A DNA stretch of 64,000 nucleotides from Candidatus Thorarchaeota archaeon (GTDB lineage: Archaea; Asgardarchaeota; Thorarchaeia; Thorarchaeales; Thorarchaeaceae). The DNA lies in contig JAFGAR010000064.1 of the NCBI GenBank assembly GCA_016933575.1, positions 32,001 through 96,000 of the forward strand, read 5' to 3'. Below are positions 30,436 through 46,483 of the stretch, one piece after another. The notes under the pieces were generated by a model. The model searched no databases. It had not been told where the DNA came from and was given only the letters and a program-made list of their open reading frames with translations. Both the position numbers and the translations under genes were made by a program. The stretch's first letter is position 1; each line of letters starts with the position of its first letter.

Positions 30436-31659
30436 CTATTCGTAAATCTCCTCAAGTCCATCCCAAGTTAATCCCATTGCTTCTGCAACAAGGACCGCTA
30501 GGTCTTTGACAGTCTTGTTGCATCCCGCCTGTGGTAATTGATCTTTCATGTATTCCACACACGAAGGACATCCAGAAGCAACAACATCCGCTTGGGTCCT
30601 CTCTATATCCTGCGCTTTCAACTTCCCAATATCTGCGGCAAATTCGTGATCAAAAGCCCGAAGGACACCACCACTTCCACAGCAATAACAATTATCCTTG
30701 TTATGCGGCAGTTCTTCGAACTCAACGCCGGGTAGAGCGGCAATGATATCTCGTGGTTCATCATAGAAACCTGAGTTACGTCCAGCATCACATCCATCAT
30801 GATAAGTGAGTTTGATATTGAGGGGCTTTGTAAATTTGATCTTGTCCTGATCTATGAGTTCCTTTATGTACGAATATCCATAGACAACTTCGAAACCATG
30901 ATCAATATTCAGGAACTCTTTGTATTCATGAGCCCACATTTTGAAACAGCCCGGGCAATTTGTGATTATTCTCTTCACCCCAAGTTCCTTATATCTCTCG
31001 ATGTTATGTTCTGCTAGTGTACGTGCGCCTTCAAAATCGCCAGTCATAATCAACGGTGCTCCACAGCAATATTCCTCCTCGCCAAGGACTGTGTAATCCT
31101 CACCTATATTATCCATTATAAGCGTCGTTGCGATTGTTGCCTGAATTGACACACCTCTGTAAGATGATGAACATCCAAAGAAGAATGCAGTCTCTGCTGA
31201 TTTTCCTTGTCTATTGAGAAGGTCATCTTCATTCGGTGTCCAATAGGACCACCCTTCAATCCTATCCATCTGCGACTGACCCTGTATATTGCAGGTCTTG
31301 AGGAGGGTCTCTTTTGCAGTGTTCATTGACTCAGGCCACATACCACGTTTCATGAATTCTCCTCGAAGGACCTGGTAAATCTTGACGAAGGGTATGTCAG
31401 TCTGACAGATTTCCTCACAACCTCCGCAGAGCGTACAACCGAATATTGCATCCTTTAAGCCTTCTAATCCATCTGTTGGACTTATTCTCCCTTGTATCAG
31501 CCCTCGAGCAAGAAGCATCTTGCCTCTCCCAGAATAGCTATCTACACGCTTTACTTTGTATGTCGGACAGGCTCCATGTCCAATCTGGCAATAGCTACAT
31601 TGGGCACATATGTATGGAAATTCTTCGAGCCCATATTTCCGTAATGCTGGGAAGTCCAT
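30436..31659 (-). CDS. HdrD/GlpC/GlcF-like Fe-S oxidoreductase (2x[4Fe-4S] + two CCG domains)
   Basis: CAQCSYC..CP and CTLCGGCEEIC ferredoxin motifs; CCG domains FFGC..YCCG..NCPGC and YHDGC..CCG..GCPSC. Confidence 0.9.
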   Translation of the reverse strand: MDFPALRKYGLEEFPYICAQCSYCQIGHGACPTYKVKRVDSYSGRGKMLLARGLIQGRISPTDGLEGLKDAIFGCTLCGGCEEICQTDIPFVKIYQVLRGEFMKRGMWPESMNTAKETLLKTCNIQGQSQMDRIEGWSYWTPNEDDLLNRQGKSAETAFFFGCSSSYRGVSIQATIATTLIMDNIGEDYTVLGEEEYCCGAPLIMTGDFEGARTLAEHNIERYKELGVKRIITNCPGCFKMWAHEYKEFLNIDHGFEVVYGYSYIKELIDQDKIKFTKPLNIKLTYHDGCDAGRNSGFYDEPRDIIAALPGVEFEELPHNKDNCYCCGSGGVLRAFDHEFAADIGKLKAQDIERTQADVVASGCPSCVEYMKDQLPQAGCNKTVKDLAVLVAEAMGLTWDGLEEIYE

Positions 31660-31721
31660 TATATGTCACTCCGGAGATTGGATTTGAACGACTTTGCGTG
31701 CTGTCCAATTAGGGTCTGCGT

Positions 31722-31808
31722 TGCCTAGCCGCCTTAAAACCTTTCTACACGGTATTGAAATAATATCGCACAACGGTGTGCCTCGCTATGTTTTTATGCA
31801 ACTAGGCA
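31722..31808. promoter_or_regulatory. Mirror-image divergent promoter pair
   Basis: Minus-strand GTTTTAAGGCGGCTAGGCA (31740-31722) vs plus-strand GTTTTTATGCAACTAGGCA (31790-31808): 15/19 identical. Central palindrome GCACA-acgg-TGTGC (31768-31781). Confidence 0.55.
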
Positions 31809-31859
31809 TTCCCGGCTCTCTAAAACCCTCCTTAGGTTCAAAGCCTGGAGAGACAATTC

Positions 31860-33800
31860 ATGGGGCTCAAACATAAACAGATTGATCAGCTCAAAGAGAT
31901 TTTTGGAGACCGTGTAGTCACGGCTAAACATGAGCTATTTCTTCAATCCATGGATGTGGGTTCTCTTCCAAAGCAGGTTGGCTGGTTGATGAATCTCAAA
32001 CCAGATGCTATCGTTCAACCAATGACCCCTGAAGAGATTCGTTCACTCTATAAATTCGCAAATGCGGAAAAAATCCCTCTGGTTCCTAGAGGCGCAGGCA
32101 CTTCTGGCTATGGTGGTGCAATACCACGAAAAGGAGGCGTTGTTGTTGATATGCGCCGTATGGATAATATTGTAACAGTTGATGAGAAGAATCTGACCGT
32201 TGTTGTAGAACCCGGTATCTGCTGGTCCAATCTTCAACTAGAACTCAATCGACTTGGTCTCGACCTACGCTGCTATCCCTCATCTGCCCTCTCCGCCACA
32301 GTTGGAGGCTGGGTAGCCCAAGGAGGCGATGGGATAGGTAGTTTGAAGTATGGGACTATCAACAAGAACTGTGTTGAATTTGAAGTAGTTCTTCCAAATG
32401 AGAAGATAATTCGTACAAGTGATACAGATCTCTTTTGCGATACAGAGGGTATCCTTGGTATACTGACAAAGGTAACCCTAAAGATTAAGCCCTTGACCAG
32501 GATCAAAGCCTTTGTCTCTAGCTTTCCAGAGAATTACCTAATGAATCTCGCAATCGAGAAGATTCTAGAAGACGGTCCACTCCCTTTCACAATAAAATTT
32601 GAAGAATCTAAATACACAGACTTGAAGAAGTCTGTCTGGGAGGAGGACTGGAAATTCCCGTATCCTGTTCATCACTGTACTATTATGGTCGTCTACGAAG
32701 GTGATGAAGAAGAGATCGAGACCGGTGCTGAAGTGGTTCGCCAAGTCACAGAGGCTCACAAAGGAGTCCTATATGATGACCATGTAGGCGAGCACGAGTG
32801 GCATGAGCGATTCTACCCAATGAGAATCAAGAAGGCCGGACCTACCCTTGTAGTTGGACAAGCATTTGCACCACTCGAAAACTTAGGTGCTATCTTTGAT
32901 GACTTCCAGTTTGAACAGGCATCTGCGAAGGCAGGTATTGATGGTTATGTCAATTCTAAGAACGCAGTCACAATGATGGGATATTTTCTCGAAGATGAAC
33001 GTCGTTCTTTCTATATGCTATCATGGTCTCAGAGCTTTGTCATTTTCAAAATTGCGCAACGTCACGGTGGACATCCACATTCAACTGGTATATGGTTCGC
33101 TAATTATGCACATATTTACTTCGGCAAACAGAGATTAGCTCGAATCCGAGCAGCGAAGCTGAAGTGGGATCAAAAAGAGATTTCGAATCCTGGTAAAATC
33201 TTTGCATATTGGCTTCCCTTCATGTTACGTGTGGGCAAGTACTTCATGTGGATTGGTTTCGATTTGCTACGGAATGGTTTTGGCAGGATTGCACCAATTC
33301 TTCTGAAATGGCTTCAGAATGTACCACCACTGAAGTGGTTATTACGGTGGGGTCGCGCTCACAGTCCTTGGCCGATTCAATACGGACTCGGGTGTTGTAT
33401 GGCTGATGGCGCAGCCGCAGTAGCATCACGATGGGATATAGAGAGATTCGGGATGCTCCCTCTCTTTGGACCCCGGCAGACGGATGTCCTTTGGATCTCA
33501 GGATCCCTTACAAAGAAGATGGCACCACGACTTCGTCGAATCTATGAACAGATGCCAGAGCCAAAGTATGTCATATCCTATGGCCAATGTGCAGCATCTG
33601 GTGGAATGTTTTTCGATGGATATTCTTTAATCGCTCCTGCTGATACGGTCGTGCCAGTGGACGTCTATATCCCCGGCTGTCCTCCCAAACCTGCTGACTT
33701 TGTGAGAGCTCACTTGATTTTACAGAACAAGATACGCGCTGGGACTACACACTGGCAAAAACGGTACGAGAATCAGGATTCGATGGGGTTGATTCAATAA
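31860..33800 (+). CDS. nuoB: Fusion: GlcD/VAO-type FAD-linked oxidoreductase + NuoB (N2 cluster) domain
   Basis: N-part: PRGAGTSGYGG, ATVGGWVA, TEGILGILT, NPGK. C-part: WPIQYGLGCC, DIERFG, PRQTD, KMAPRLRRIYEQMPEPKYVIS.G.CA.SGG, PVDVYIPGCPP. Confidence 0.92.
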   Translation: MGLKHKQIDQLKEIFGDRVVTAKHELFLQSMDVGSLPKQVGWLMNLKPDAIVQPMTPEEIRSLYKFANAEKIPLVPRGAGTSGYGGAIPRKGGVVVDMRRMDNIVTVDEKNLTVVVEPGICWSNLQLELNRLGLDLRCYPSSALSATVGGWVAQGGDGIGSLKYGTINKNCVEFEVVLPNEKIIRTSDTDLFCDTEGILGILTKVTLKIKPLTRIKAFVSSFPENYLMNLAIEKILEDGPLPFTIKFEESKYTDLKKSVWEEDWKFPYPVHHCTIMVVYEGDEEEIETGAEVVRQVTEAHKGVLYDDHVGEHEWHERFYPMRIKKAGPTLVVGQAFAPLENLGAIFDDFQFEQASAKAGIDGYVNSKNAVTMMGYFLEDERRSFYMLSWSQSFVIFKIAQRHGGHPHSTGIWFANYAHIYFGKQRLARIRAAKLKWDQKEISNPGKIFAYWLPFMLRVGKYFMWIGFDLLRNGFGRIAPILLKWLQNVPPLKWLLRWGRAHSPWPIQYGLGCCMADGAAAVASRWDIERFGMLPLFGPRQTDVLWISGSLTKKMAPRLRRIYEQMPEPKYVISYGQCAASGGMFFDGYSLIAPADTVVPVDVYIPGCPPKPADFVRAHLILQNKIRAGTTHWQKRYENQDSMGLIQ

Positions 33801-34318
33801 TGGCACTACGCGAAGATAGCGAACCCTATTGCTTAGCTTGGGTTGGTTTCCTCTTGATGGGTGCATATTATGCCAATTTCGGATACCAACTATGGACCAA
33901 TCCTGTTGCAGTATCTGCTTTCATCAACAACTCTCCCTCAATGCTAATCCTCCTTGGATTGCCTCCACTAATGGTGTTCCTGTTTACAGGGTACTTGCGA
34001 CCTTCTCGTGGAAAAGCAAAGATGAGCATGCTAGGTCCCTCTGTCATTGCAGGATTGTTCTTCGTGATTATATCATATCAGGTTGGATCAACGACTACTA
34101 TCCTCGGAGATCTGATAGTGTTTTCAGCATGGGGTATTGGAAGTGCTTTGTTGACAGCTGGAGGATTTTCAATTATGGCTTCTTTGGAGAAGAACACATC
34201 TCCTGGAATTATGGATATTAGTTCACTTCATTATGGTCCTGTAAAAGAAACGCCTGCACCTACTGAGGAGTCAGTACCTCAAGGCTCCGATGTAAAGCCA
34301 GCGGAATCGGCACAATAA
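33800..34318 (+). CDS. Hypothetical 4-TM membrane protein coupled to the FAD-NuoB gene
   Basis: TAATG stop/start overlap; four hydrophobic helices and a polar tail. Confidence 0.75.
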   Translation: MALREDSEPYCLAWVGFLLMGAYYANFGYQLWTNPVAVSAFINNSPSMLILLGLPPLMVFLFTGYLRPSRGKAKMSMLGPSVIAGLFFVIISYQVGSTTTILGDLIVFSAWGIGSALLTAGGFSIMASLEKNTSPGIMDISSLHYGPVKETPAPTEESVPQGSDVKPAESAQ

Positions 34319-34321
34319 TTC

Positions 34322-34696
34322 CTAGTCTGTTTCTGGAAGCCATGCGAGAGCCGCAAAGGCCAGCAATAATCCACAGGCCATCCAGAAAAAGAGTAGAGCT
34401 CCCATTAGACCTTCTGGAAAGAGCGTTATGATAAGGAATCCATGGACACCACCTATGATTCCTGACAAAGTTGTCAGACTGACACGACCCGGTCTCGATT
34501 TGGTCCTTGCAAGAGCAAAAGTTGAGCATACGGTTACTATGCCACTCAGGAACAGAACTAGTTTAATCGCTATGTCTGAGATAGTAGCTGTTAGAATTAT
34601 CCAGAAGTATACTCCAAGGAGTCCCATCCCAATAAGAAGGACCAAGTAATAGAAAAATGTGCCACGGATGAATGACAACCAATTCGACCTCTTCAT
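34322..34696 (-). CDS. Hypothetical 4-TM membrane protein
   Basis: 124-aa hydrophobic ORF convergent with 33800..34318. Confidence 0.65.
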   Translation of the reverse strand: MKRSNWLSFIRGTFFYYLVLLIGMGLLGVYFWIILTATISDIAIKLVLFLSGIVTVCSTFALARTKSRPGRVSLTTLSGIIGGVHGFLIITLFPEGLMGALLFFWMACGLLLAFAALAWLPETD

Positions 34697-34979
34697 TTGT
34701 TACTACGAGAAAGTCGAAGTGTTGTGCTGTATATTTAACTCCTTTGAGTGATGTTTGTTTGGGCGAATGGTTTTTAACATGCATTCAGAATGCGCCTGCT
34801 TAAGTTCGAAAGTACGGAACGTGACCATAAATGGTGATGTGCTGTGCAAGCCAGGATCAAAGATGCGGAGCTTAGAGAATGAAACATTTGTGCACTGAAA
34901 CCGCAAGAGATAGATATTGCAGACAAGAAGTCATTTTCCACAACTCACCTGGCGCTGAGTTTTCACTCTAGGAGGTCTA

Positions 34980-35432
34980 TTGATTACGATGAGGCTTTTC
35001 ATCGATTTCTTCCCGGTGCTTGTCTGGGCAGTATTAGTTATTGTCCTGATTCTCGGAATGTTAGTTGGATCTTGGGTATTGAGGCCTCATGTTCTCCAGA
35101 ATAGTGAAAAGACATCGAGCTACGAATGCGGTGAAGAACCAATAGGCCCCGCAAGAATTGCCTATCCCTACAACTATCTTGTCTATACTATCCTGTTTGT
35201 TGTTGTTGATGTGCTTGGCGCATTTCTGTGGTTACTTGCTGCATCCTCTTTTCGATTGAGCCCGACAATCGTTTGGCAAGTCCTTGTATTTGTGCTGATT
35301 CTTATGGGTGGTCTCGGCTTTGCCATGAAGATGCTTCCCCAGACTTTCCTCAGTGGAAAAGAAACTCTAGCACTATATCGCGAAGCTAAGGCTGCAAAGG
35401 AAAAACAAGAGCTTGAAGCAGGAGGTCACTGA
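34980..35432 (+). CDS. nuoA: Complex I-like subunit A
   Basis: 3 TM, EKTSSYECGEEP loop, LFVVVDV; GGAGGT RBS. The start may be ATG 34989. Confidence 0.92.
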   Translation: MITMRLFIDFFPVLVWAVLVIVLILGMLVGSWVLRPHVLQNSEKTSSYECGEEPIGPARIAYPYNYLVYTILFVVVDVLGAFLWLLAASSFRLSPTIVWQVLVFVLILMGGLGFAMKMLPQTFLSGKETLALYREAKAAKEKQELEAGGH

Positions 35433-35436
35433 AGAG

Positions 35437-36081
35437 ATGCAACTCGATATATGGTTTGAAGAGGCTGAGTTCATTGTAATTGCTGCCATTGTCATTTTTC
35501 TTGCATACCTTGCACTGGAACATCGTGACATTGTCTACGCGGCATTCTTTTTTGGCTTCATGGCCTCTTTTGTTGCTGGTTTCTTTCTATTGCTTGAAGC
35601 ACCTTTCATTGCAGGTATGCAGATCGCTGTATACACTGGAGGGATTAGTGCATTGATAATCTTCGCAGTGCTTCTTCTACCCCGAGCCCAAGACTCTTCC
35701 TTGGAGGTCTTCGCTTCGCCTAGAAGAAGGAATGCTGGATTGGTACTATCAGCGATGGTTGGCTCATTGTCAGCAGCCCTAGCCCTCGTTTTTCCATGGT
35801 ACGAAACTTTCTCATCAGTGACTCCGCCACTTGAGAACAATCTTGAACTTCTCTCAAAATGGCTCTGGTCTGATCATGGTATCTATGTTCAGATGATTGC
35901 TCTCATCCTTCTCACAGCAATTGTTGGATCTATTGCTATTTTGAAGATGGAGAAAGCAGAACGTCTCACACCTATAGTAAGTGATTTTGGTGTTGAGTCA
36001 GTTCCTGAACCAATTGATGACGAAGCATCTGATATTGAAGATGAATCCCCGCAGAATGGGACTGAGGAGGTTGATACATAA
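35437..36081 (+). CDS. nuoJ: Complex I-like subunit J
   Basis: LEAPFIAGMQIAVYTGGI and LILLTAIVGSI motifs. Confidence 0.9.
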   Translation: MQLDIWFEEAEFIVIAAIVIFLAYLALEHRDIVYAAFFFGFMASFVAGFFLLLEAPFIAGMQIAVYTGGISALIIFAVLLLPRAQDSSLEVFASPRRRNAGLVLSAMVGSLSAALALVFPWYETFSSVTPPLENNLELLSKWLWSDHGIYVQMIALILLTAIVGSIAILKMEKAERLTPIVSDFGVESVPEPIDDEASDIEDESPQNGTEEVDT

Positions 36082-36401
36082 TGGTCCCCCTCTCCTGGTA
36101 TCTGGTGGTGGCGTTCATTCTCATAGGTCTCGGAATCTATGGAATGATGGTCAAGCGAAATCTCATACGTATTCTAATTGGAGCTGAAATCCTTGGTAAT
36201 GGAGTCAACATTGCCCTAGTTGCTGTTTCAATCTACAGCCCTGTCTTCACATTTACGGGACAGGGTTTACTCATGCTGGTGATCTCTGTGGCAGCAGCTC
36301 ACACAGCTCTTGCGATGGTTCTGATGCTTATTTACAATCAACGATACAAATCAGTTGACCTTGGTAGACCATTCAAACTGGAGGATGATAGCAATGCCTG
36401 A
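36081..36401 (+). CDS. nuoK: Complex I-like subunit K
   Basis: IGLGIYG..KRNLI.ILIGAEI, GQ, VAAA; 3 TM. Confidence 0.92.
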   Translation: MVPLSWYLVVAFILIGLGIYGMMVKRNLIRILIGAEILGNGVNIALVAVSIYSPVFTFTGQGLLMLVISVAAAHTALAMVLMLIYNQRYKSVDLGRPFKLEDDSNA

Positions 36402-36903
36402 TGCATCGTCACTGGGTCGTGCAATCATCAATAAGCTGCCTGAGGTCGAGTCTAAACCACTTCAGGGAAATAAGATCGAGCTCCTGGTCCCTCATGAGAA
36501 AATTCGAGATGTGGTATCACTTATTGACGAATTGGTTCCCGATGCCTTACCCGAATCTGCATTTGGCATTGATCTTGAGGATGACAAATACGAAGTAGTC
36601 TACATATTTTGGTCTCATGAATCAACGATGCTCTGTCAGTTACGAGTTTCACTTGTAGGGGAGAAACCATCAATTCAGACTGTTAGCGACATATTTCCTG
36701 GGTTGGAATGGCATGAGCGTGAAACTAGTGAGATGTTCGGTATCACCTTTGAGAACCATCCTGACATGAGACCTCTCCTGCTGCCTGATGATTTGGTTGG
36801 AAAATATCCCATGAGAAAACGATTCAAGACCGATCGAAGTCGCCTTGAAGAAACTGGCCTTTCAACCCCTAGTCCTAGACCTGAACGTGGAGGTGGCGAA
36901 TGA
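36394..36903 (+). CDS. nuoC: Complex I-like subunit C
   Basis: YEVVY and WHERETSEMFGITFENHPDMRPLLL...YPMRK. ATG 36394 follows a GGAGG RBS. Confidence 0.92.
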   Translation: MPDASSLGRAIINKLPEVESKPLQGNKIELLVPHEKIRDVVSLIDELVPDALPESAFGIDLEDDKYEVVYIFWSHESTMLCQLRVSLVGEKPSIQTVSDIFPGLEWHERETSEMFGITFENHPDMRPLLLPDDLVGKYPMRKRFKTDRSRLEETGLSTPSPRPERGGGE

Positions 36904-38040
36904 ATGTGTCCAGATATCCTTGATGAAACCAGTGAGATCTGGTTTGGTCCTCAACATGTCAGTGCTCATGGGTGGGCTACAAAACTGAAACTTGTTGGAG
37001 ACTACATTGTCGAGTGTGACCCGAATGCTGGATATTTCCATCGTTCGGCTGAAAAATGTCTAGAGTTCCGTAATTTCAGGCAAGGTTCAATGGTATGTGA
37101 ACGTATCTGCATGATGGAAGCATTCGTTGCAGAATATCCCTATGTGGCTGCAGTCGAGAAGATTGTTGATCTTGAGGTCCCAGAACGCGCGAAAATCATG
37201 CGTACTATCATGATTGAGATGAATCGGATTCATTCTCTTCAGTTTTGGTGGGGTCAATTTGCAGGGGAGTTAGGTCTCTTTGCGATGCTGCTTTGGCCCT
37301 GGGTTGATAGAGAATATACACTTGATGCTTTTGAGGAACTGACTGGGTCTCGTCATACTGTATCCTATGTCACACCTGGCGGGGTTAAGTATGATTTCAC
37401 TCCCAAGTTCTTGGAAAAATTTGAAATTGCACTCTCTAGAGTGGAAGAACGAATCCCGATCTTCAAGGACATGTTTCTTGGTAGCCCTACGTTCAGGTTA
37501 CGTACCGAGGGAGTAGGTCAGTACACTGCAAAACAAGGTCTCAAGTGGGGCTTGAGTGGTCCTAATATCAAAGCTTGTGGTATTCCAATGGACCTCCGTA
37601 AGGATGACCCTGACTCGAATCTTGCATATGATATGATTGATTGGGAAGTACCCATTACAATAAACGAGAATCATCCTGGTGAATGCGATGCATTTGACAG
37701 ACTAGTTCAGCGATTCAAAGAAATTGAGACTTCAGTTGGTATTATCAGAAAGCTCTTACCTCTTGTCCCTGAAGGTCCAATCATTGACCCCAAGGCTCGA
37801 GCCAAAGTCAATCGTCTACCTGAAGGAGAGGGTTATGGTAGGATTGAGGGTACTCGTGGAATCACAACCGTTTGGTTGAAGACATTCGATAAGGCTCAGA
37901 CTCCATATAGAGCCAAAATACGTGGTCCTTGCTTCGCATCATATTATGCATTGAAGCATATTGTGCCAGGTGCTCGTTTTGCGGACTTTCCAGCGATATT
38001 TGGAAGCTTGGATCCTTATCCCGGGTGGTGGGACAGATAG
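36904..38040 (+). CDS. nuoD: Complex I-like subunit D (no NiFe site)
   Basis: FGPQHVSAHG, GYFHRSAEK, EMNRIHS, PGGV, EGTRG, PYRAKIRGP and terminal GSLDP..WDR. It lacks both hydrogenase CxxC pairs. Confidence 0.92.
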   Translation: MCPDILDETSEIWFGPQHVSAHGWATKLKLVGDYIVECDPNAGYFHRSAEKCLEFRNFRQGSMVCERICMMEAFVAEYPYVAAVEKIVDLEVPERAKIMRTIMIEMNRIHSLQFWWGQFAGELGLFAMLLWPWVDREYTLDAFEELTGSRHTVSYVTPGGVKYDFTPKFLEKFEIALSRVEERIPIFKDMFLGSPTFRLRTEGVGQYTAKQGLKWGLSGPNIKACGIPMDLRKDDPDSNLAYDMIDWEVPITINENHPGECDAFDRLVQRFKEIETSVGIIRKLLPLVPEGPIIDPKARAKVNRLPEGEGYGRIEGTRGITTVWLKTFDKAQTPYRAKIRGPCFASYYALKHIVPGARFADFPAIFGSLDPYPGWWDR

Positions 38041-38053
38041 GAGGTGCGATGAG

Positions 38054-39199
38054 ATGCAGTTCGATTTCATAACTTGGCTTGACGGGCTTTATAATTGGTT
38101 CATCGGTCTCTTGATCTGGTTTTGGAATGTCATTGAATGGTTCTTCTTTTGGATCATTGATCTTATCAATGGAGTATGGGCCATAGTAATAATCCCTGAG
38201 AATTTCATGTTTCTATTCCGTTCTATTATATTCCCTGGACTCATCTTCATCGTGCTTGCACTCATTTTCAGTATCTGGTTCATCCGGAAGACATGGGCAC
38301 GAATTCAGGATAGACGTGGACCGACACATATGGGCAAGTATGGTGGTCTACAATTGTTTGCGGATGCAATCAAACTCATGGCTAAGGAAACAATAATTCC
38401 CGACAAGGCAAGACGTTGGGCTTATAGGATTCTACCTTCGTTACTCCTCTTAATTGTACTACTTCCCTTCGCATTCATACCCTGGGATCCAATATGGAAT
38501 ATTCTTGGAAATCCTGCCTTTCCCGACCTTTCTGTGAGCCTAGTGCTAGTCTTTGCATTTCTCACTGCAGTGCCTGTACTCTCACTACTAATCGGTTGGG
38601 TCTCAGGTTCCAAGTATTCTCTGATTGGAGGATTTCGAGCTGCAAATAACCAATTTGCCTCCGAGATACCCATGGTCATTTCTTCTATTGGTCCTGCAAT
38701 GCTTGCTGGTTCTCTGAGTCTCTTCGGAATTGTTCAAGCGCAGACCAGCATCTGGTACATTGTTCTTCTCCCAATCAACTTTACCACCTTCATGGTTGCT
38801 GCAATTGCCTCTGTAGGAACGTTTCCCTTTGATGCTCCCGTTGCAGACTCCGAGATTATCTTCGGGTGGCGAACAGAGCTATCGGGCATCTACTTCACGT
38901 TGGTCTATTTTGCTGAGTTTGCCGAACAAATGCTTTACTCAGCCTTAATGGTTGTACTCTTCTTTGGTGGTTTTAATGGACTTCCATTCTTACCAGGAAT
39001 TGTCAATTTCCTAATCAAGTGGCTTGTCGTATTATTCATCTTTGTAGTTGTGACATCTTCCTTCTATAGAATCAGACAGGACCAGATAGTGCACCTTTGT
39101 TGGAAATACTTACTGCCACTTTCAATACTTAATGTAGTTCTTGTCATGTTTGCAGTTGTCTACATACCAGGACTACTTCCGCTTGTGATAGGAGGATAA
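38054..39199 (+). CDS. nuoH: Complex I-like subunit H
   Basis: RK..ARIQDRRGP, GLQLFADAIKLMAKE, SKYSLIGGFR, PFD and RIRQDQ. ATG 38054 follows GGAGGTG. Confidence 0.93.
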   Translation: MQFDFITWLDGLYNWFIGLLIWFWNVIEWFFFWIIDLINGVWAIVIIPENFMFLFRSIIFPGLIFIVLALIFSIWFIRKTWARIQDRRGPTHMGKYGGLQLFADAIKLMAKETIIPDKARRWAYRILPSLLLLIVLLPFAFIPWDPIWNILGNPAFPDLSVSLVLVFAFLTAVPVLSLLIGWVSGSKYSLIGGFRAANNQFASEIPMVISSIGPAMLAGSLSLFGIVQAQTSIWYIVLLPINFTTFMVAAIASVGTFPFDAPVADSEIIFGWRTELSGIYFTLVYFAEFAEQMLYSALMVVLFFGGFNGLPFLPGIVNFLIKWLVVLFIFVVVTSSFYRIRQDQIVHLCWKYLLPLSILNVVLVMFAVVYIPGLLPLVIGG

Positions 39200-39203
39200 T
39201 GCG

Positions 39204-39635
39204 ATGGGTTTCCTAAGTAATCTTGGTGAAATATTTCAAATCCTGAAACACGTCTTTCGTCAAACATTCAAAAGACCATTCACTTACTTCTATCCATTTG
39301 AAGACAGACCTTATCCTGAGAGAACCCGTGGCAGACACATCCACATTCGTGAGAACTGTACTGCATGTGCTCAGTGTGTGAGAGCATGTCCTGTTGCAGC
39401 AATTCGTATTGACAAGGAAGATAGAAAGTTCGAGAAGGATGCAGCTCTCTATTTTGATTATACGCGTTGCATTTTCTGCGGAGATTGCGTCAGTGCCTGT
39501 CGATTCGATGCACTTTTCCATACGAAAATCGTGGACCTCTCGGAGGGTGACCGTGATGACCTTATCTATGGCCCTGATAAGATAACAAAACTCGATAGAG
39601 ACCCTCTTGAGTGGCGTGGAAGGAGGTTCAGGTAG
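39204..39635 (+). CDS. nuoI: Complex I-like subunit I (2x[4Fe-4S])
   Basis: YPFE..RGRH, CTACAQCVRACP and CIFCGDCVSAC. Confidence 0.95.
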   Translation: MGFLSNLGEIFQILKHVFRQTFKRPFTYFYPFEDRPYPERTRGRHIHIRENCTACAQCVRACPVAAIRIDKEDRKFEKDAALYFDYTRCIFCGDCVSACRFDALFHTKIVDLSEGDRDDLIYGPDKITKLDRDPLEWRGRRFR

Positions 39636-41134
39636 TGTTGTTTGGAATTCCCTTCATGGCACTATCACTCGCCGTGATGTTCATCGGAGGTCTCTTCATC
39701 TACCTGTTCAAGGCTAGCATTGGCGATGCAGCTGGTAGAATTGCAGTTGCTGTGTCTCTTGTAGGAACCATCCTGATGATTCCTCCATTCTACGAGCTCA
39801 TGATGTTTGGCTCATCCGTTGAAACAGCAGTATGGTCAAATCTACTTGAGCCATTTGGGCTGTACTTGGATCCAATTGCATTTCCAATCACTTTTGCTGT
39901 AGTAGTTCTTGGATTTCTATCAGTTGTCTATGCGGTGGGTTATACCAAACATACTGAGAACAAACCTACTTTTTTCGCAAATCAATTGTTCTTCATAATG
40001 GGAATGACATGGGTAACTCTTGCGACTAATATGATCGAGTTCTTTATAGCTTGGGAGCTTATGTTGGTGCCAAGCTACTTCCTGATTCTGTTCTGGGGTT
40101 TCCCTGAAACCAGAAAACGTACTGCTCTGAAATTCTGGTTGTACACACAATCTGGAGCTGTCTGTATCCTGATAGGCTTTGGACTTCTCTATGCTCAGGG
40201 TGGTTCATTTGTTCTGGCAAATATTGTTGCTAATGGTGACCTCATCTTCAAGGTCATTTTCATACTTCTAGCTGCTGGATTCCTTGTGAAAATGGCAGTT
40301 TTCCCAATCCACTGGTGGTTACCACCAGTTCATGCTGAGGCTCCAACTCCAATCTCAGTCCTATTGTCTGGTGCTATGATTGAAACCGGCGCCTATGCTC
40401 TGGTACGATTCGGTACCCTGACCCTTTACGATGCAGCGATATCGCTCTCAATCTGGGTAGCTGCACTCGGTGTTATCACGATGTTCTATGGCGGTTTCAT
40501 GGCACTAGCTCAGGTGGACATCAAGAGACTCCTTGCTTACTCCTCCGTTTCACAGATGGGGTACGTACTATTTGCTCTCGGTTCTGTTACAATCATAGGT
40601 GTTTCAGGTGGAATGTTCCATCTCATCAATCATGCTTTCTCAAAGGGTCTGCTGTTTATGACCGCTGGAGCTGTTATTCATCAGACCGGACTTCGTGATA
40701 TTAAGAAGATGGGAGGTCTCTCAAATAAGATGCCTATCACCGCCTTCGCAGCTGCCATCGGAATGATGAGCATTGCCGGTAGTCCTCCGCTCTCCGGATT
40801 CGCTTCGGAGTGGATGATGTTCCTCGGGGGATTTAATCGTGCTATAATTACCGATCCATTTACCCATATTGTCCTAGGAACTAACTTACCATTTCTGATT
40901 TTAGCAATTTTAGCTGTTTCCAGCTCTATCCTCAGCGCAGCATACATGCTTCGTTTCTTCTGGCGAGTCTTCCTTGGGCCTCATCCCGAAGAGCTCGAAG
41001 ATGTTAAGGAAAGTCCAAGATCCATGACCATTCCGATGATCATCCTTGGTGTCCTCATTGTAATCTTTGGAATATTCCCGAGCTTGGCACTAGATGTCAT
41101 TGTCCCGGCGTTTTCGAGTGCACTTGGTCCGTGA
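39635..41134 (+). CDS. Additional NuoM/MrpD-like antiporter subunit (second M)
   Basis: AWELM, KMAVFPIHWWLP..HAEAPTP, DIKRLLAYSSVSQMG, NHAFSKGLLF and GFASE. The start is probably GTG 39635. Confidence 0.88.
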   Translation: MLFGIPFMALSLAVMFIGGLFIYLFKASIGDAAGRIAVAVSLVGTILMIPPFYELMMFGSSVETAVWSNLLEPFGLYLDPIAFPITFAVVVLGFLSVVYAVGYTKHTENKPTFFANQLFFIMGMTWVTLATNMIEFFIAWELMLVPSYFLILFWGFPETRKRTALKFWLYTQSGAVCILIGFGLLYAQGGSFVLANIVANGDLIFKVIFILLAAGFLVKMAVFPIHWWLPPVHAEAPTPISVLLSGAMIETGAYALVRFGTLTLYDAAISLSIWVAALGVITMFYGGFMALAQVDIKRLLAYSSVSQMGYVLFALGSVTIIGVSGGMFHLINHAFSKGLLFMTAGAVIHQTGLRDIKKMGGLSNKMPITAFAAAIGMMSIAGSPPLSGFASEWMMFLGGFNRAIITDPFTHIVLGTNLPFLILAILAVSSSILSAAYMLRFFWRVFLGPHPEELEDVKESPRSMTIPMIILGVLIVIFGIFPSLALDVIVPAFSSALGP

Positions 41135-41144
41135 GGTGAATCAA

Positions 41145-43397
41145 ATGCTCTTTGGTCTACCAGAATATCTAATCATCGTCATTCCACTTGCAGGTTCCTT
41201 ATTTGTCCCAATAATTGGGAGGTATAGTACTCGTGCTAGAGACTGGACTCCTGCATTGTTGATGGGCATCTCTATGATTCTATGCTGGTCTCTCATACCT
41301 GACATTGGATCAGTCCCTAAGACCTGGAATTGGATCAACATTCCTGGACTTGTGATTCCCTTTAGTATGCTTCTTGACTCACTGTCCGTCATCATGGGTG
41401 TACTTGCTAGCACGCTCTGTTTTCTCATATACGTGTACAGCACCGAGTACATGGCACACGAGGGAGATAGAGACCGCTTCTTCTTCCTGATGCTTGCCTT
41501 CGGGGGTGGTATGCTTACCCTGGTCCTCTCAAACAACCTCCTGATTGCGTTTATTGGATGGGAGATCATGGGATTTTGTAGTTACGGACTCATTGGTTTC
41601 TGGAATGACAAGCGCAATCCTCCAGAGGTAGACCCAACTGGCTATGAGTCAAGTAATCCGTTGCTGCAGTTCAAGACCGAGGGCGAGTACAATACTCATT
41701 GCGGAACAAAGGCTTTCGTGGTAACAAGAATTGGTGACGCACTGATGCTGGGCGGCATCCTGCTTCTATTTACATTCACAGGGTCATTTCTCTTTCAAGA
41801 CACATCAATTGGAAGTCAGGCTGTTGAAGGTATTGCAGAACATGGCGGCTGGATAACTGCCCTAGCTGGTGTGGGTCTTCTGTTGCCCACGCTTTTGTTA
41901 ATCTTTGCTGGCGCGATTGGAAAGTCAGGTCAATTCCCTCTGCAGGTATGGCTCCCCGAAGCCATGAGTGGTCCGACTGCGGTTTCTGCTTTGATTCATG
42001 CTGCAACCATGGTCAAAGCAGGAGTCTATATCACTGCAAGATTTCTCTTGACAATCGTATCTGCTACAGAGACAAGCGGACACTCTTCATCTGCTATTGG
42101 GATGTTTCCGCTACAGATAGGCTTCCCTGATGCGTTCACCTTCTTTGCCATAGTTGCAATCGTTGGTGCTCTCACCGCATTCATTACTGGTACAATGGGA
42201 ATGGTCTCAAATGAACTGAAGCAGGTGTTGGCATTCTCAACTCTTAGCCAACTAGGCTATATGATGCTTGCAATAGGTACTGCTGGCATGTTGACGCATT
42301 ATGATGTTGCTTATCTGAGTAGCGTCATGCATGTCGTCAGTCATGGTGCATTCAAAGCGTTGCTGTTTCTCTCATCTGGTGGGATTATCCACGCGTTACA
42401 TACCAAGTATATGAGTAAGATGGGCGGGTTGAAGAAGTATATGCCCAAGACCTTTGCGCTTATGTGGATTGGAGTGCTAGCGTTGTCAGGAATTCCTCCA
42501 TTCTCAGGTTTCTGGTCAAAAGACTCAATCATAGAGCATGTATATGCACTTGGTGTTGAAACGCCTCTGGGAATTTTCCTGTTCATTCTTGCTATCGCAG
42601 CTGCGGCTTGTACAATCTTCTATAGCATTCGACTCATGGGAATGGTCTTCTATGGCCCATCAGAGTTTGACGAACATGACCAAGAGGAGGAATCAATCAG
42701 TAGCCATAATGACAAAGAGGAATCCGAAGAATCTCATGACGAACATCGCGGGGTACCCTCTGATCCAGGTCCAGCTATGATGATTCCGCTCTACATTCTA
42801 GCAGCATTCACTATCATTGCCTTCATAATCTATCCAATGATACAGAATATTGTCCTCCAGACTAATAGGGACTTGTTTATCATATTTCTTGAGGATATGG
42901 TAGCTGCGAAATTTGGTCCAGAAGGTTTAGTTCCCTTCACACTCACCATTGGAGCACTTGCTCTTGGTGGGATTCCAGCCTATTGGATTTACATTAAAAA
43001 CCAAGATACTCCAAACTCAATCATTCCAGAGAATGGAATTCTTAGGAAGTTGCACAACTTCTTGAAGCACCGCTGGTATATCAATGAGGGATACTATTGG
43101 TTTGTCAACAAGTTCCTCAGATTTGCTGATCTCTGGCGCAGGGAGATTGATGAGCCTATAATTGATGGCATTGACTTCAAGTCTGCAGCCACAGCCCAGG
43201 TACTTGCGACTAAGATTCGATGGTTTGATGATAATGTTGTGGATGGTTTTGCTGAGGCCGTGTCAACAAAGAGTGTTGAAGCTTCTGAGGTTGGACTTGA
43301 GTCTCAGACAGGAAAGATCAATGACTACGTCGGAGTGGTGATTTTCGGAGTAGGTCTCCTGATCATCATTGGACTTCTATCATTGGGGGTGCTCTAA
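41145..43397 (+). CDS. nuoL: Complex I-like subunit L
   Basis: GWEIMG, TRIGD, GKSGQFPLQVWLPEAM.GPT.VSALIHAATMVKAG, HGAFKALLF, GFWSKD, and a lateral helix ending QTG + terminal TM. Confidence 0.94.
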   Translation: MLFGLPEYLIIVIPLAGSLFVPIIGRYSTRARDWTPALLMGISMILCWSLIPDIGSVPKTWNWINIPGLVIPFSMLLDSLSVIMGVLASTLCFLIYVYSTEYMAHEGDRDRFFFLMLAFGGGMLTLVLSNNLLIAFIGWEIMGFCSYGLIGFWNDKRNPPEVDPTGYESSNPLLQFKTEGEYNTHCGTKAFVVTRIGDALMLGGILLLFTFTGSFLFQDTSIGSQAVEGIAEHGGWITALAGVGLLLPTLLLIFAGAIGKSGQFPLQVWLPEAMSGPTAVSALIHAATMVKAGVYITARFLLTIVSATETSGHSSSAIGMFPLQIGFPDAFTFFAIVAIVGALTAFITGTMGMVSNELKQVLAFSTLSQLGYMMLAIGTAGMLTHYDVAYLSSVMHVVSHGAFKALLFLSSGGIIHALHTKYMSKMGGLKKYMPKTFALMWIGVLALSGIPPFSGFWSKDSIIEHVYALGVETPLGIFLFILAIAAAACTIFYSIRLMGMVFYGPSEFDEHDQEEESISSHNDKEESEESHDEHRGVPSDPGPAMMIPLYILAAFTIIAFIIYPMIQNIVLQTNRDLFIIFLEDMVAAKFGPEGLVPFTLTIGALALGGIPAYWIYIKNQDTPNSIIPENGILRKLHNFLKHRWYINEGYYWFVNKFLRFADLWRREIDEPIIDGIDFKSAATAQVLATKIRWFDDNVVDGFAEAVSTKSVEASEVGLESQTGKINDYVGVVIFGVGLLIIIGLLSLGVL

Positions 43398-44978
43398 TTG
43401 CAGGTAGACTCTACAACTTTGATAACAAGTATTCCAATGAATATCCTCGTCCTCATACTTGTCATTCCTCTAGTTGGTGCGGTCCTTGCATACATCGCAG
43501 GCAGCAAGGGTGCACGTGCAATCACACTCCTGATTACGACACTCGAACTAGGCTTAGCCCTTCTACTCATTCTAGGTACTCCTTCAGTTGGTCCAGATCC
43601 TGGTGGAATGAGTTACACATGGATCTATACGATTGCGAGACTTGGAACCACTGTTGATTCTCCTGTCTTTCAAATCATTCTTGGTGTTGATGGAATCTCA
43701 GTAGTAATGATCCTCCTCTCCAATCTCGTCGTATGGATTGCAGCAATTGCATCAAATCATATCAAGAACGCAGAAGGTGTATACTACTCCTTATTCCTGC
43801 TCCTGCAGACAGGCCTCCTTGGAGTTTTTGTATCTCTTGATCTCATTGGATTCTTCATCTTTTGGGAACTTGTCCTTGTACCAATGTTTTTCATCATTGG
43901 CAGATGGGGCGAAGATGGAAGCAGACACGCGGCTATCAAGTTCTTCATCTATACTCATCTTGGTTCTGCAGTAATGCTCGTTGGATTCTTCTACATCTAT
44001 TTCATGTCTTATCAGTTCAATATTCTTGGATATCCAACTGCAGTCCCAACATTCAGCATGGTTGCGCTTCGGAACATCGGACTTGACCCAACCATTCAGA
44101 TAGGTTTTGCTCTTGCCATATTCATGGGTGCAGGCGTGAAACTTCCAGTATTTCCATTACATAACTGGTTGCCATGGGCTCACGTAAAGGCACCAACTCC
44201 TGGTTCAGTTATCCTCGCTGGAATTCTTCTGAAGATGGGTGGGTATGCATTCATCAGACTCGGACTTTGGATGGTCCCAGAAGCAATGGCTAGACTTGCC
44301 ATTCCCTTTGCCTTTGTGGCTGTCTTCACATGTATCTACGCTGCATTTACCGCACTTGCTCAGACTGATATGAAGAGCCTTGTAGCTTATACGTCTATCA
44401 ACCACATGTCATGGGTCCTACTTGGCGTTGCTGCGTATGCGGCTGCCTACAATTCTCCAGATGCAGCTATTCGAGCTGCTGCGAACTTGGCTATCCAAGG
44501 TTCTATATTCATGATGTTCTCACACGGCACCATAATCTCTGTCATGTTCATTGTAGCTGGGCAGCTCAAATATAGTGTAGGTACTCGTGAGATTCCCGAA
44601 GTTAAGGGATTGATGACACAGGCTCCTAAACTCTCAGCGATTATGATCATTGCTACCTTGGCAGCTTTCGGTCTTCCTGGATTTAGTGGATTCATAGCAG
44701 AGGCACTGGTCATCTTTGGAGCCATTGTCATTCATCCGTGGACCGCATTCATCGCGTTTGGCATTTTCTTGACAGTAGGCTACATGCTCTGGATGTTAAA
44801 TCGAATTGTCTTTAGTGATATTGACCCCGAAAAAAGCGTGAATGAAGCCGCACGAAGCGATCTCATTGCTCCAATCCTCATGTTAATTCCTGTGATTCTG
44901 CTTGGGATTTGGCCTGATCTGATATTGAATCTCGTTCAACCAGTTGTTGAACTGATGCTGAGCGGAGGTTTACCATAA
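43398..44978 (+). CDS. nuoM: Complex I-like subunit M
   Basis: DGIS, FWELVLVPM, KLPVFPLHNWLPWAH..APTPGSVILAGILLKMG and GLPGFSGFIAE. Confidence 0.94.
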   Translation: MQVDSTTLITSIPMNILVLILVIPLVGAVLAYIAGSKGARAITLLITTLELGLALLLILGTPSVGPDPGGMSYTWIYTIARLGTTVDSPVFQIILGVDGISVVMILLSNLVVWIAAIASNHIKNAEGVYYSLFLLLQTGLLGVFVSLDLIGFFIFWELVLVPMFFIIGRWGEDGSRHAAIKFFIYTHLGSAVMLVGFFYIYFMSYQFNILGYPTAVPTFSMVALRNIGLDPTIQIGFALAIFMGAGVKLPVFPLHNWLPWAHVKAPTPGSVILAGILLKMGGYAFIRLGLWMVPEAMARLAIPFAFVAVFTCIYAAFTALAQTDMKSLVAYTSINHMSWVLLGVAAYAAAYNSPDAAIRAAANLAIQGSIFMMFSHGTIISVMFIVAGQLKYSVGTREIPEVKGLMTQAPKLSAIMIIATLAAFGLPGFSGFIAEALVIFGAIVIHPWTAFIAFGIFLTVGYMLWMLNRIVFSDIDPEKSVNEAARSDLIAPILMLIPVILLGIWPDLILNLVQPVVELMLSGGLP

Positions 44979-46483
44979 TGCTGCAATTAGACATCTTGCT
45001 TGACAGCCTAAGGGCTTTATTAGCCCCTCTAAGAGACCTATTGCTCGCAATTGTACCAGCTGAATGGATCATGTCCCTTCCTGCTATTACTCTGGTAGTC
45101 TTTGGATTACTTGCCCTAATGGTCGGACTTCGATATAATCCATTAGTCATAAGCTTCATCGGTGTCATTCTTGCAACATTTGAGATGCTTCTGTTCGATC
45201 CCAGTGCTATGAGTGGCTATTCGTTTGGAACATTATTCATTCGCGATGCTTTCACCGATTTCTTCATCTACATTGTTCTTATCGTTGCTTTCCTAGTCTT
45301 GCTCTCTTCCACTCTTTGGGGGGGTGACAAAGGGACCTACAATTTCCTACTTCTCCTCTCTTTTGCAGGAGCTCTCTGGGTAATTATGGCGACAGATCTT
45401 GTAGCTCTATTTCTTGCCTGGGAACTGATGTCCACGCCAACTTATGTTCTCGTTGCTCTTAGTCCAAGACGGGAATCTGTAGATGGCGCTACAAAATACT
45501 TCGTTATGGGCTTGCTTGCAACAAACCTCATGCTACTTGGCATTGCTCTGACTATTGGTGTTACTGGAACCACTGACCTTCACACCATTGGAGTGTTCAT
45601 TAATAGCCTATGGGCTTCACCAGCTGGTAGTGAACCAGCGGTCTACACAATGCTTCTTGCAATGGTCTTGTTTATTGTTTCATTCGGATTCAAGGTCGGT
45701 ATATTTCCTGGATGGCAATGGGTTCCTGATGCATATGCAAGTGCTGATGGTAGTGTCACTGCTTATCTTGCAGGAGGTTCTAAAAAGACAGGAGTGAGTG
45801 CCCTTCTACGAATCTTGATGGTTGCATTCTTTGTTGCTAGGACTGAGTGGACTCTATTAATAGCTGGTGTAGCAATCCTAACAATGATCATTGGTAATCT
45901 ATTAGCTCTCGCTCAGAAGGATATCATGAGGATGTTAGCGTATTCCAGCATTGCGATGATGGGTTATCTCTTCATTGGTATCGCCGCAGCTAACGAATTG
46001 GGCATGGCTGCAGCTAGTTTTCATGCATTCACTCATGCAATAATGAAGACAGCTGCCTTCATCCTTGTGTGGATGCTATCTTTAAGACTCACGAAGAGAA
46101 TAACCTATGATGACCTCGCGGGATTGAACAAGCGAGCACCCATTGCAGCAGCTATGTTTGCCATACTGATGCTCTCTCTTGCAGGACTTCCTGTAGGTGT
46201 AGGGTTCTGGTCAAAATTAGTACTCTTCCAGAGTGCAATCCTCGCAGACATGTGGTGGTTGGCTTTGATAGGTCTCTTGAACTCAGTCTTCTCCTTGGGC
46301 TATTATTTACGAATACTGAAATATACTTACATGATTGAACCTGTTGATGACTCGAAATTAAATCTACCAAGAGTACCCCTATTTGCAGTAGGCATTTGTG
46401 TAGCTATTGTTCTCTTGCTGTTGGTATTTCCAAACCTTGTCCTTGATTATGCCTTTCAAGCGGCATTGACCTTCTTCCCATAG
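44978..46483 (+). CDS. nuoN: Complex I-like subunit N
   Basis: AWELMS, KYF, FKVGIFP...WVPDAY, SKK, RMLAYSSIA and LSLAGLP...GFWSK. Confidence 0.94.
   Translation: MLQLDILLDSLRALLAPLRDLLLAIVPAEWIMSLPAITLVVFGLLALMVGLRYNPLVISFIGVILATFEMLLFDPSAMSGYSFGTLFIRDAFTDFFIYIVLIVAFLVLLSSTLWGGDKGTYNFLLLLSFAGALWVIMATDLVALFLAWELMSTPTYVLVALSPRRESVDGATKYFVMGLLATNLMLLGIALTIGVTGTTDLHTIGVFINSLWASPAGSEPAVYTMLLAMVLFIVSFGFKVGIFPGWQWVPDAYASADGSVTAYLAGGSKKTGVSALLRILMVAFFVARTEWTLLIAGVAILTMIIGNLLALAQKDIMRMLAYSSIAMMGYLFIGIAAANELGMAAASFHAFTHAIMKTAAFILVWMLSLRLTKRITYDDLAGLNKRAPIAAAMFAILMLSLAGLPVGVGFWSKLVLFQSAILADMWWLALIGLLNSVFSLGYYLRILKYTYMIEPVDDSKLNLPRVPLFAVGICVAIVLLLLVFPNLVLDYAFQAALTFFP

Follow-up and report, generated by a model that had tools for sequence, protein, structure and literature searches.

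Among relatives of complex I, the modules through which electrons enter are exchanged at the distal end of the peripheral arm. To our knowledge, no respiratory chains have been described for the Thorarchaeia, a widespread sediment lineage. In Methanomassiliicoccales, a head-less Fpo-like complex has been assumed to interact directly with HdrD and to function as a ferredoxin:heterodisulfide oxidoreductase (PMC7374477). In a survey of archaeal gene fusions, those listed for complex I were limited to the types B-C and B-C-D (PMC11237513). The present analysis concerns a 64,000-nucleotide window of a Candidatus Thorarchaeota genome (assembly GCA_016933575.1, contig JAFGAR010000064.1, positions 32,001–96,000), in which the genes for a complex-I-like ion pump lie beside those of a flavoenzyme (30436–46483; coordinates refer to the window). 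Judged by its sequence, the pump is related to complex I and MBS, lacks the head and has four antiporter subunits, and its sole NuoB is covalently joined to a two-protein enzyme carrying flavin adenine dinucleotide (FAD), [4Fe-4S] and CCG motifs. An original prediction from the same DNA had proposed such a fusion, and its main claims are taken up below together with the results bearing on them.

The central gene is an open reading frame (ORF) of 646 aa (31860–33800, + strand). The Pfam scan identified FAD_binding_4 (residues 48–187, 6.6e-38), FAD-oxidase_C (residues 231–447, 7e-9), and Oxidored_q6 (residues 512–617, 1.6e-24), that is, all three of the domains predicted to reside on one chain. 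The protein comprises a flavin domain with the fold of vanillyl-alcohol oxidases and D-lactate dehydrogenases (VAO/D-LDH; residues 1–450, 31860–33209), an amphipathic tail of two predicted helices (residues 451–490, 33210–33329), and a NuoB domain (residues 491–646, 33330–33800). The NuoB domain scored above the family cut-offs of PF01058 (86.5 bits; cut-off 27), NF005012 (180.7; 116), and TIGR01957 (173.2; 142.7), and residues 491–628 aligned without notable gaps to residues 24–161 of Thermus thermophilus Nqo6 (E 1e-42). The ligand set of cluster N2, described in the original prediction as intact, was found to be complete, with the motifs GCC (511–513), GQC (575–577), and PGCPP (605–609), and its four cysteines (C512, C513, C577, and C607) were invariant in 43 full-length orthologues. 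With 646 aa, the protein lies outside the size of a small free subunit (∼150–260 aa), the free NuoB relatives being 152–185 aa long. Where public records carry a product name, it reads “NADH-quinone oxidoreductase subunit NuoB,” “NAD(P)H-quinone oxidoreductase subunit K,” or “hypothetical protein.”

When 5.8 billion proteins were searched, 43 near-full-length clusters (644–667 aa) and some shorter fragments were recovered, all 73–93% identical, and nearly all of the 43 hold all three domains and come from Thorarchaeota assemblies. The original prediction had called for the same fusion and synteny to be sought in other Thorarchaeia; among the 87 species-level genomes of the class, the full single frame was found in ∼50, at 74–93% identity and confined to the 12 genera g1–g12. 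It is also present in a closed chromosome of 3.16 Mb, with the same gene order as here. Across the 43 fusions, no substitution occurs at 21 positions within residues 451–499, a segment made up of the tail and NuoB's first helix. As one frame is shared by ∼50 independent assemblies, a chimeric assembly or a read-through error is excluded. One genome (G024) showed the fusion gene split at residue 435; however, nuoD was split on the same contig as well, which indicates indel errors in that contig and not a natural fission. An apparent loss of the fusion in another genome (G058), which retains the downstream gene TM172, was likewise rejected, as stretches of N border this part of the scaffold and the absence represents an assembly gap. 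The fusion is therefore clade-wide, real, and under strong constraint. No other fusion of a FAD enzyme to NuoB was detected outside this cluster, either by a word-index search of proteins of 355–1131 aa or by an exhaustive phmmer search of 1.84 billion representatives. A 533-aa match (P0144) was discarded as a microbial fusion because it belongs to a 38-Mb record and adjoins a VQ-motif gene, and is presumably eukaryotic.

The nuo genes form an unbroken + strand series of ORFs (34980–46483) consisting of nuoA (34980–35432, Pfam Oxidored_q4), nuoJ (35413–36081, Oxidored_q3), nuoK (36081–36401, Oxidored_q2), nuoC (36355–36903, Complex1_30kDa), nuoD (36904–38040), nuoH (37961–39199, NADHdh), nuoI (39204–39635, two Fer4 domains, 2x[4Fe-4S]), and four Proton_antipo_M subunits. 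The latter are the extra antiporter-like subunit M2 (39611–41134; NCBIfam NDH_I_M, 299.5 bits), NuoL (41094–43397, with an additional Proton_antipo_N domain), NuoM (43398–44978), and NuoN (44978–46483). NuoL is 767 aa long as against 690 aa in the operon of a sister family and ∼615 aa in the NCBIfam model; M2 is encoded in the sister operon also. The longest frame of nuoH (412 aa) begins with a TTG codon 80 bases inside nuoD (37961–38040), and the orthologues range from 376 to 437 aa, so the true start probably lies downstream of 37961. This order agrees with the predicted nuoA-J-K-C-D-H-I-M2-L-M-N, and Pfam identified no nuoB, nuoE/F/G, or fpoF among or near the nuo genes of the window. The layout proposed as a single operon actually consists of three units, namely, the fusion with TM172 (+), as124 (−), and nuoA–N (+), and in genus g3 the fusion and the adjoining gene for a CCG protein are 26 kb distant from the nuo genes.

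The assignment of the fused domain to this pump was evaluated from the gene order in relatives. Eight further genera provided nine loci that include the K|C junction, and in each of them nuoC comes immediately after nuoK. In the sister family, represented by one genome (G001), the order is J-K-B-C-D-H-I-M2-L-M-N, with a free nuoB of 152 aa at this junction. The presence of a free nuoB at this position in the sister family and its absence from the clade indicate that the operon lost its nuoB, which survives solely in fused form. Co-occurrence was found to be strict: orthologous NuoD (at least 72% identical) is confined to the fusion-bearing genera, where it is usually encoded ∼5 kb away on the same contig, and all other genera have only a NuoD paralogue with 31–35% identity.

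The genome contains six PF01058 matches. The only other small one is a gene of 163 aa on contig C57, located inside a nuoA-B-C-D-H-I-like cluster, and the remaining four are open frames of 261–331 aa, a size that suggests hydrogenase small subunits. The large subunit of the C57 cluster (P0124) retains RICGICSATH and DPCFSCTDR with both CxxC pairs, and with all the NiFe ligands present the cluster is assigned to the group 4 [NiFe]-hydrogenases. Hence, the C57 gene, with C/D/H/I partners of its own, was ruled out as a spare nuoB. Its identity to the fused NuoB domain is 39%, compared to 45% for the free NuoB of the sister operon and 59% for the nearest free NuoB (P0145) among the 1.84 billion representatives. 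The genome search for a stand-alone nuoB or nuoEFG suggested in the original prediction thus did return a small NuoB-like gene, but one belonging to a hydrogenase; for the NADH module, no Complex1_51K (PF01512) match was obtained in this 85.5% complete genome. This is in agreement with the claim that no separate nuoB serves the pump. Together, the gene order, the strict co-occurrence, and the free nuoB of the sister lineage support the fused domain as the pump's own NuoB.

Two observations on related clusters may be added. The hydrogenase cluster (G000 C57:61792–65911; L007:9792–13912) adjoins 2-hydroxyacyl-CoA dehydratase genes, while a separate nuoJ-K-L-M-N-like cluster (G000 C212:43277–49273; L008:7278–13274) adjoins genes for a LarA-type lactate racemase and an FGGY kinase, the two together making up a second complex-I-like enzyme split over two contigs. 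The nearest free NuoB is encoded on a 2.6-kb contig (L035; JGI 3300035643) that carries nuoA-nuoB and then a B12-binding radical SAM gene, and represents a relative with another split of the nuo genes.

Structure prediction with AlphaFold2 from a 79-row alignment gave a pLDDT of ∼90 for the flavin domain and lower confidence for the NuoB part. In Foldseek, the flavin domain matched mLDHD of mouse with a TM-score of 0.82–0.84 and LctD with 0.79. It fell below the equivalog cut-offs of TIGR00387 (GlcD; 131 vs. 568 bits), NF008408 (88 vs. 897 bits), and YdiJ (67 vs. 1350 bits). The metal-binding motifs HxGDGNxH and EHG(xG) aligned to GYVNSKNAV and GHPHSTG, respectively, and were absent in 18 of the 18 aligned family members, over a stretch where the confidence of the alignment is low. 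The label “GlcD-type” given earlier is therefore too specific. The assignment goes as far as the VAO/D-LDH fold, and “lactate” or “glycolate” as the substrate would be a guess; a protein-atlas search with the flavin domain returned generic FAD-oxidase clusters only.

Beyond the flavin domain, helices were predicted at residues 451–472, 474–486, and 491–501. They are amphipathic, with hydrophobic moments of 0.48–0.63, and include no transmembrane (TM) segment. The third aligns to residues 24–34 of Nqo6 and hence is NuoB's own first helix, α1. The unfused orthologues of 498/499 aa in genus g14 carry the same tail as far as PPLKW. The segment described in the original prediction as a linker is thus not a new spacer but the inherited amphipathic C-terminal tail of an unfused ancestral flavoprotein. 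At or near the point of the tail, some paralogues of the flavin domain carry TM helices and some an iron–sulfur (Fe-S)/CCG module. The ancestral tail and the anchors of the paralogues suggest that the flavin family consists of membrane-surface enzymes, and the fusion, as read from the alignments and predicted helices, joined the membrane tail of the flavoprotein directly to the membrane-proximal helix of NuoB. Two further arrangements were observed in the family. P0061 (867 aa, Hydrothermarchaeota) is a relative with an N-terminal membrane anchor of the NrfD/PsrC type, another hard link of this flavin subfamily to a quinone-type membrane module. In other Thorarchaeia (L009:1–5415 and L029:1–5931), paralogous FAD_binding_4 and CCG pairs lie upstream of the locus, along with PNPOx-like and amine-oxidase-like genes.

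The gene preceding the fusion (30436–31659, − strand) encodes an HdrD/GlpC/TfrB-like Fe-S protein of 407 aa (Pfam Fer4_8 and two CCG domains), which combines two cluster motifs of the ferredoxin type with a complete pair of CCG motifs (CX..CCG..CxxC). Both the ferredoxin-type cysteines (18, 21, 24, 31, 75, 78, 81, and 85) and those of the CCG domains (163, 198, 199, 235, 238, 290, 326, 327, 364, and 367) are invariant in 38 homologues. Its best NCBIfam relatives were TfrB, LdhH, and GlpC, each scoring under its cut-off, with TfrB the closest (169 vs. 385 bits), and none of the Hdr, Tfr, or GlpC equivalog cut-offs in NCBIfam was reached.

The original prediction had suspected this CCG protein of acting together with the flavoenzyme, and three lines of evidence are in agreement with it. 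In 34 bacterial proteins of 871–1037 aa, homologues of both partners share a single chain, the flavin part coming first and the second half matching the CCG protein over its full length; identity is 34–40% in the flavin part and 27–34% in the CCG part, and to the forms from Bacillota 35–40% and 28–34%, respectively. The CCG gene adjoins the fusion or its unfused counterpart in all the ten further loci that show it, from eight fusion genera and the unfused g14, and in g3 it stays with the fusion although the nuo genes are far away. While the best of three controls scored 0.00, modeling of the flavin domain (residues 1–500) with the CCG protein and FAD gave 0.91, a mark that 58 of 80 solved complexes and two of 110 mismatched pairs also attain; this calibration is only rough, since own alignments and FAD were used here. 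The model runs share at least 97% of the contacts, and the pLDDT of the partner is at least 90. In the predicted interface, the FAD-binding loops (residues 79–81 and 142–145) meet the cluster motif C18–C24, and the motifs RFYPMR.K..GP and DER also face partner residues 13–88, which form the [4Fe-4S] domain, with the CCG domains pointing away. As the alignments included split single-chain homologues, the high score mainly reflects likeness to those enzymes. Taken together, the Rosetta-stone fusions, the conserved linkage, and the model support the CCG protein as the probable partner of the flavoenzyme.

The genome encodes ∼12 CCG proteins. Genes for a geranylgeranyl reductase (GGR; 27399–28601), a tetratricopeptide repeat protein (28642–29256), and a polyprenyl synthase (29271–30326) adjoin the CCG/flavoprotein pair; GGR and polyprenyl synthase are found beside it also in g2, g3, g4, and the unfused g14, and the synthase alone in two more loci.

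The residues lining the pocket between NuoD and NuoB were compared with those of characterized relatives. The best PDB match of NuoD was MBS subunit L (6u8y_L, 1e-59), followed by complex I at 1e-53 or weaker. Both loop histidines are retained (GPQHVSAHG), and the quinone tyrosine (Y87 in T. thermophilus, Y144 in Yarrowia lipolytica) is replaced by methionine in ERICMME. The C-terminal CxxC is absent (DPYPGWWDR), leaving one of the four NiFe cysteines. The motifs GPQHV(S/A)AHGW, ER.CM.EAF, and DPY(P/V)GWWDR were constant in the eight further genera sampled, and the NuoD of the sister lineage has an MBS-like RAC...VCP pattern. Going by these aligned motifs, NuoD has lost both the quinone tyrosine and the NiFe site. 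NuoH is of the complex-I type, with E. coli NuoH as its best PDB match (7e-45) and a partly altered acidic loop (FPFDAPVADSE vs. HPFDQPEAEQE in E. coli). No MqnA/D homologue was found in the genome at its 85.5% completeness, and the neighboring polyprenyl synthase is its only PF00348 match. Dedicated synthesis of a carrier by this synthase and GGR was considered and is not supported on these grounds, the single polyprenyl synthase presumably being the geranylgeranyl diphosphate (GGPP) synthase for lipids.

Two small membrane proteins are restricted to the clade. TM172 (33800–34318, +), with three to four hydrophobic helices by hydropathy, has a start that overlaps the stop of the fusion, and its gene directly follows the fusion or accompanies the nuo genes in all loci. 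The gene as124 (34322–34696, −) lies between TM172 and nuoA, divergent from the latter, and encodes a four-helix membrane protein; copies with 33–67% identity occur at the same place and in the same orientation in every locus, from which as124 is taken to be a real conserved gene. Both are confined to g1–g12, and in g3 both accompany the nuo genes and not the fusion. Pfam, NCBIfam, and the protein atlas gave no family or function lead for TM172 and none for as124. They are candidate extra membrane subunits that may have been gained together with the fusion.

Of the readings that these features allow, the most likely is a ferredoxin-linked, quinone-independent pump that hands its electrons to the FAD/CCG module, and we give it about an even chance. 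Reduced ferredoxin would enter at NuoI, the presumed entry site by analogy to known head-less complexes, and electrons would pass through the NuoI clusters to N2. From there they would exit by way of the Fe-S centers of the CCG protein and the FAD, and the acceptor would be soluble and not a quinone; either the flavin could reduce a substrate resembling an oxo acid, or the CCG clusters could reduce a disulfide. Ions would be moved by the A/H/J/K/M2/L/M/N arm, and the amphipathic tail, TM172, and as124 may keep the module membrane-bound where the peripheral arm has its foot. Alternatively, the direction could be reversed, with oxidation of the substrate driving, or driven by, the ion gradient. 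The more specific proposal that N2 is wired via the HdrD-like protein to the flavin, so that oxidation of ferredoxin would be coupled directly to the reduction of a disulfide or a soluble organic acid, or the coupling would run the other way, is put forward tentatively, with a likelihood somewhat short of even. The published parallel is the direct interaction assumed between the Fpo-like complex and HdrD of Methanomassiliicoccales (PMC7374477).

Several considerations weigh against a quinone-independent pump of this kind. We infer the direct wiring of the FAD/CCG module to N2, and likewise ferredoxin as the donor. The tail is already present in the unfused orthologue, which suggests that the ancestral enzyme worked at the membrane surface, presumably with a membrane carrier or a free acceptor, and paralogues with TM anchors or an NrfD quinone module in its place fit coupling at the level of a carrier. 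The loop histidines kept in NuoD and the acidic loop partly kept in NuoH leave room for a lipophilic ligand in the pocket, and the lack of quinone synthesis was judged from a single Pfam family in a genome that is not complete. It is, moreover, hard to drive four to five ion channels with the ∼260–310 mV available between ferredoxin and pyruvate/lactate at standard potentials.

An alternative reading is an enzyme that is only tethered to the pump, with no through-protein electron exchange between the two, which we regard as unlikely but well worth consideration. The fusion would park the dehydrogenase at the entrance of the NuoH/NuoD/NuoB cavity, and a lipophilic carrier would shuttle between them as in a hard-wired supercomplex. 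Consistent with this, the ancestral tail runs straight into NuoB helix α1, which in solved structures of complex I lies at the membrane surface near NuoH, and the family is elsewhere linked to TM anchors, CCG modules, and the NrfD anchor; the kept loop histidines of NuoD would also fit. However, the quinone tyrosine is lost across the clade, no MqnA/D was found, the lone polyprenyl synthase is presumably used for lipids, and we know of no terminal quinol oxidase in the group. A mere tether would also not need 21 invariant positions over residues 451–499.

Less probable again, and rather doubtful in our view, is a substrate-input module, in which the flavin would oxidize an organic substrate and pass electrons via the CCG protein into N2, parallel to or instead of ferredoxin, with an acceptor such as sulfane sulfur reduced in an MBS-like pocket of NuoB and NuoD; in essence, this corresponds to the input of electrons by a dehydrogenase as read in the original prediction. 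The closeness of NuoD to MbsL, the MBS-like RAC...VCP of the sister operon, and the match of the flavin domain to VAO/D-LDH enzymes, which are usually dehydrogenases, argue for it. Against it, the C-terminal cysteine kept in MBS and in the sister lineage is lost here, the metal motifs of D-LDH are absent, and the potentials of 2-hydroxyacid couples (∼−190 mV) are too positive for sulfur or protons to be reduced and four antiporter modules to be driven at once. That the fusion is an artefact or irrelevant to the pump, as a chimera, a read-through frameshift, or a relic with a free NuoB serving the pump, can be practically dismissed, since the split gene of G024 lies on an error-prone contig, the free NuoB-like gene on C57 is a distant hydrogenase subunit, and the frame and the N2 ligands are conserved throughout.

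Searches of PMC (8.1 million papers) and bioRxiv found no description of a fusion between NuoB and a flavoenzyme, in line with the original view that the architecture was not known as characterized. Nor was any earlier description found of a redox enzyme whose covalent attachment point is the N2 subunit, in the catalytic foot of the arm; within the complex I/MBS superfamily, both the module and the site at which it is attached would be new. No genomic evidence for physical association is stronger than a gene fusion, and here it indicates that a head-less pump carries an HdrD-like/flavoprotein enzyme. If the more specific proposal, with N2 wired via the HdrD-like protein to the flavin, is correct, Asgard archaea would conserve energy anaerobically in a way not seen before, and the docking of an HdrD-type protein directly on a head-less complex I, long assumed, would for the first time be fixed by genes. 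The system offers a concrete target for energy conservation in Thorarchaeia, as a closed genome is available, the subunits are defined, and the unfused orthologue can serve as a natural control, and it bears on the evolution of the complex I quinone pocket from hydrogenase- and MBS-like ancestors.

Some other genes of the window may be noted. Directly after nuoN lies a gene for a Ras/Roc-family small GTPase (46536–47087, −), an eukaryotic signature protein of the Asgard type, and next to it one for a PAS-GAF-PAS histidine kinase (47169–49139, −). A full-length haem catalase (17392–18864, +; Pfam 1.2e-196) is encoded between major facilitator superfamily (MFS) transporters and MutS in this presumed anaerobe. 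Two very long ORFs were also present, at 4442–10318 (+) and 57296–62974 (−), of 1958 and 1892 aa, respectively.

The locus was also compared with characterized systems. Similar to NuoB, Nqo6, PSST, and NdhK, the fused domain aligns end to end with Nqo6, carries the tandem CC and two further cysteines, and is the sole NuoB for a full set of nuoA, C, D, H, I, J, K, L, M, and N; it differs in the 490 extra N-terminal residues that form the flavoenzyme and its amphipathic tail. The NuoB fusions known otherwise and returned by our search were of the types B-C, B-C-D, and A-B only. Compared to the 14-subunit complex I, no NuoE/F/G module was found and the quinone tyrosine is replaced. The two CxxC pairs characteristic of the large subunit of group 4 [NiFe]-hydrogenases are lacking in NuoD. 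Chadwick and colleagues reportedly described, in 2018 (in the reference list of PMC11543930), a “2M” complex I with a fourth antiporter-like subunit, from bacteria, NADH- or quinone-linked and with a free NuoB. The locus resembles it in the four Proton_antipo_M subunits and the long NuoL (767 aa); as the sister operon has it too, the four-pump arm predates the fusion.

MBS (Mbx), the sulfane-sulfur reductase of Pyrococcus furiosus (PDB 6u8y), shares with the present system the MbsL-like NuoD and the loss of both the NiFe site and the quinone tyrosine. However, the fused NuoB is nearer to Nqo6 (1e-42) than to MbsJ (3e-29), NuoH is nearer to complex I, and the membrane arm is of the Nuo type (A, J, K, L, M, and N) as opposed to the Mrp-type membrane module of MBS; MBS also retains the C-terminal cysteine that is lost here and has neither a flavin nor a CCG module. 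On the side of the flavoenzyme, GlcD, LDHD, and LctD share the fold of FAD_binding_4 and FAD-oxidase_C but differ in the His-His-Glu metal site, absent here by alignment. The Dld-II, LdhAB “GlpCD,” and DVU3071-type enzymes, which have two subunits or a single chain, combine FAD_binding_4/FAD-oxidase_C with 2x[4Fe-4S] and 2xCCG as found here (PMC3949148), whereas the present subfamily lacks HxGDGNxH/EHG, fails the GlcD and YdiJ cut-offs, and has its flavoprotein fused to NuoB. The system of Methanomassiliicoccales is similar in having an 11-subunit-type pump devoid of NuoEFG/FpoF, no evident membrane carrier, and a CCG protein of the HdrD type that presumably accepts the electrons directly (PMC7374477). 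The Thorarchaeia, unlike these organisms, are not methanogens, and whereas HdrD of Methanomassiliicoccales is free and its association with the pump is assumed, the flavoprotein partner of the HdrD-like protein is here covalently part of NuoB itself.

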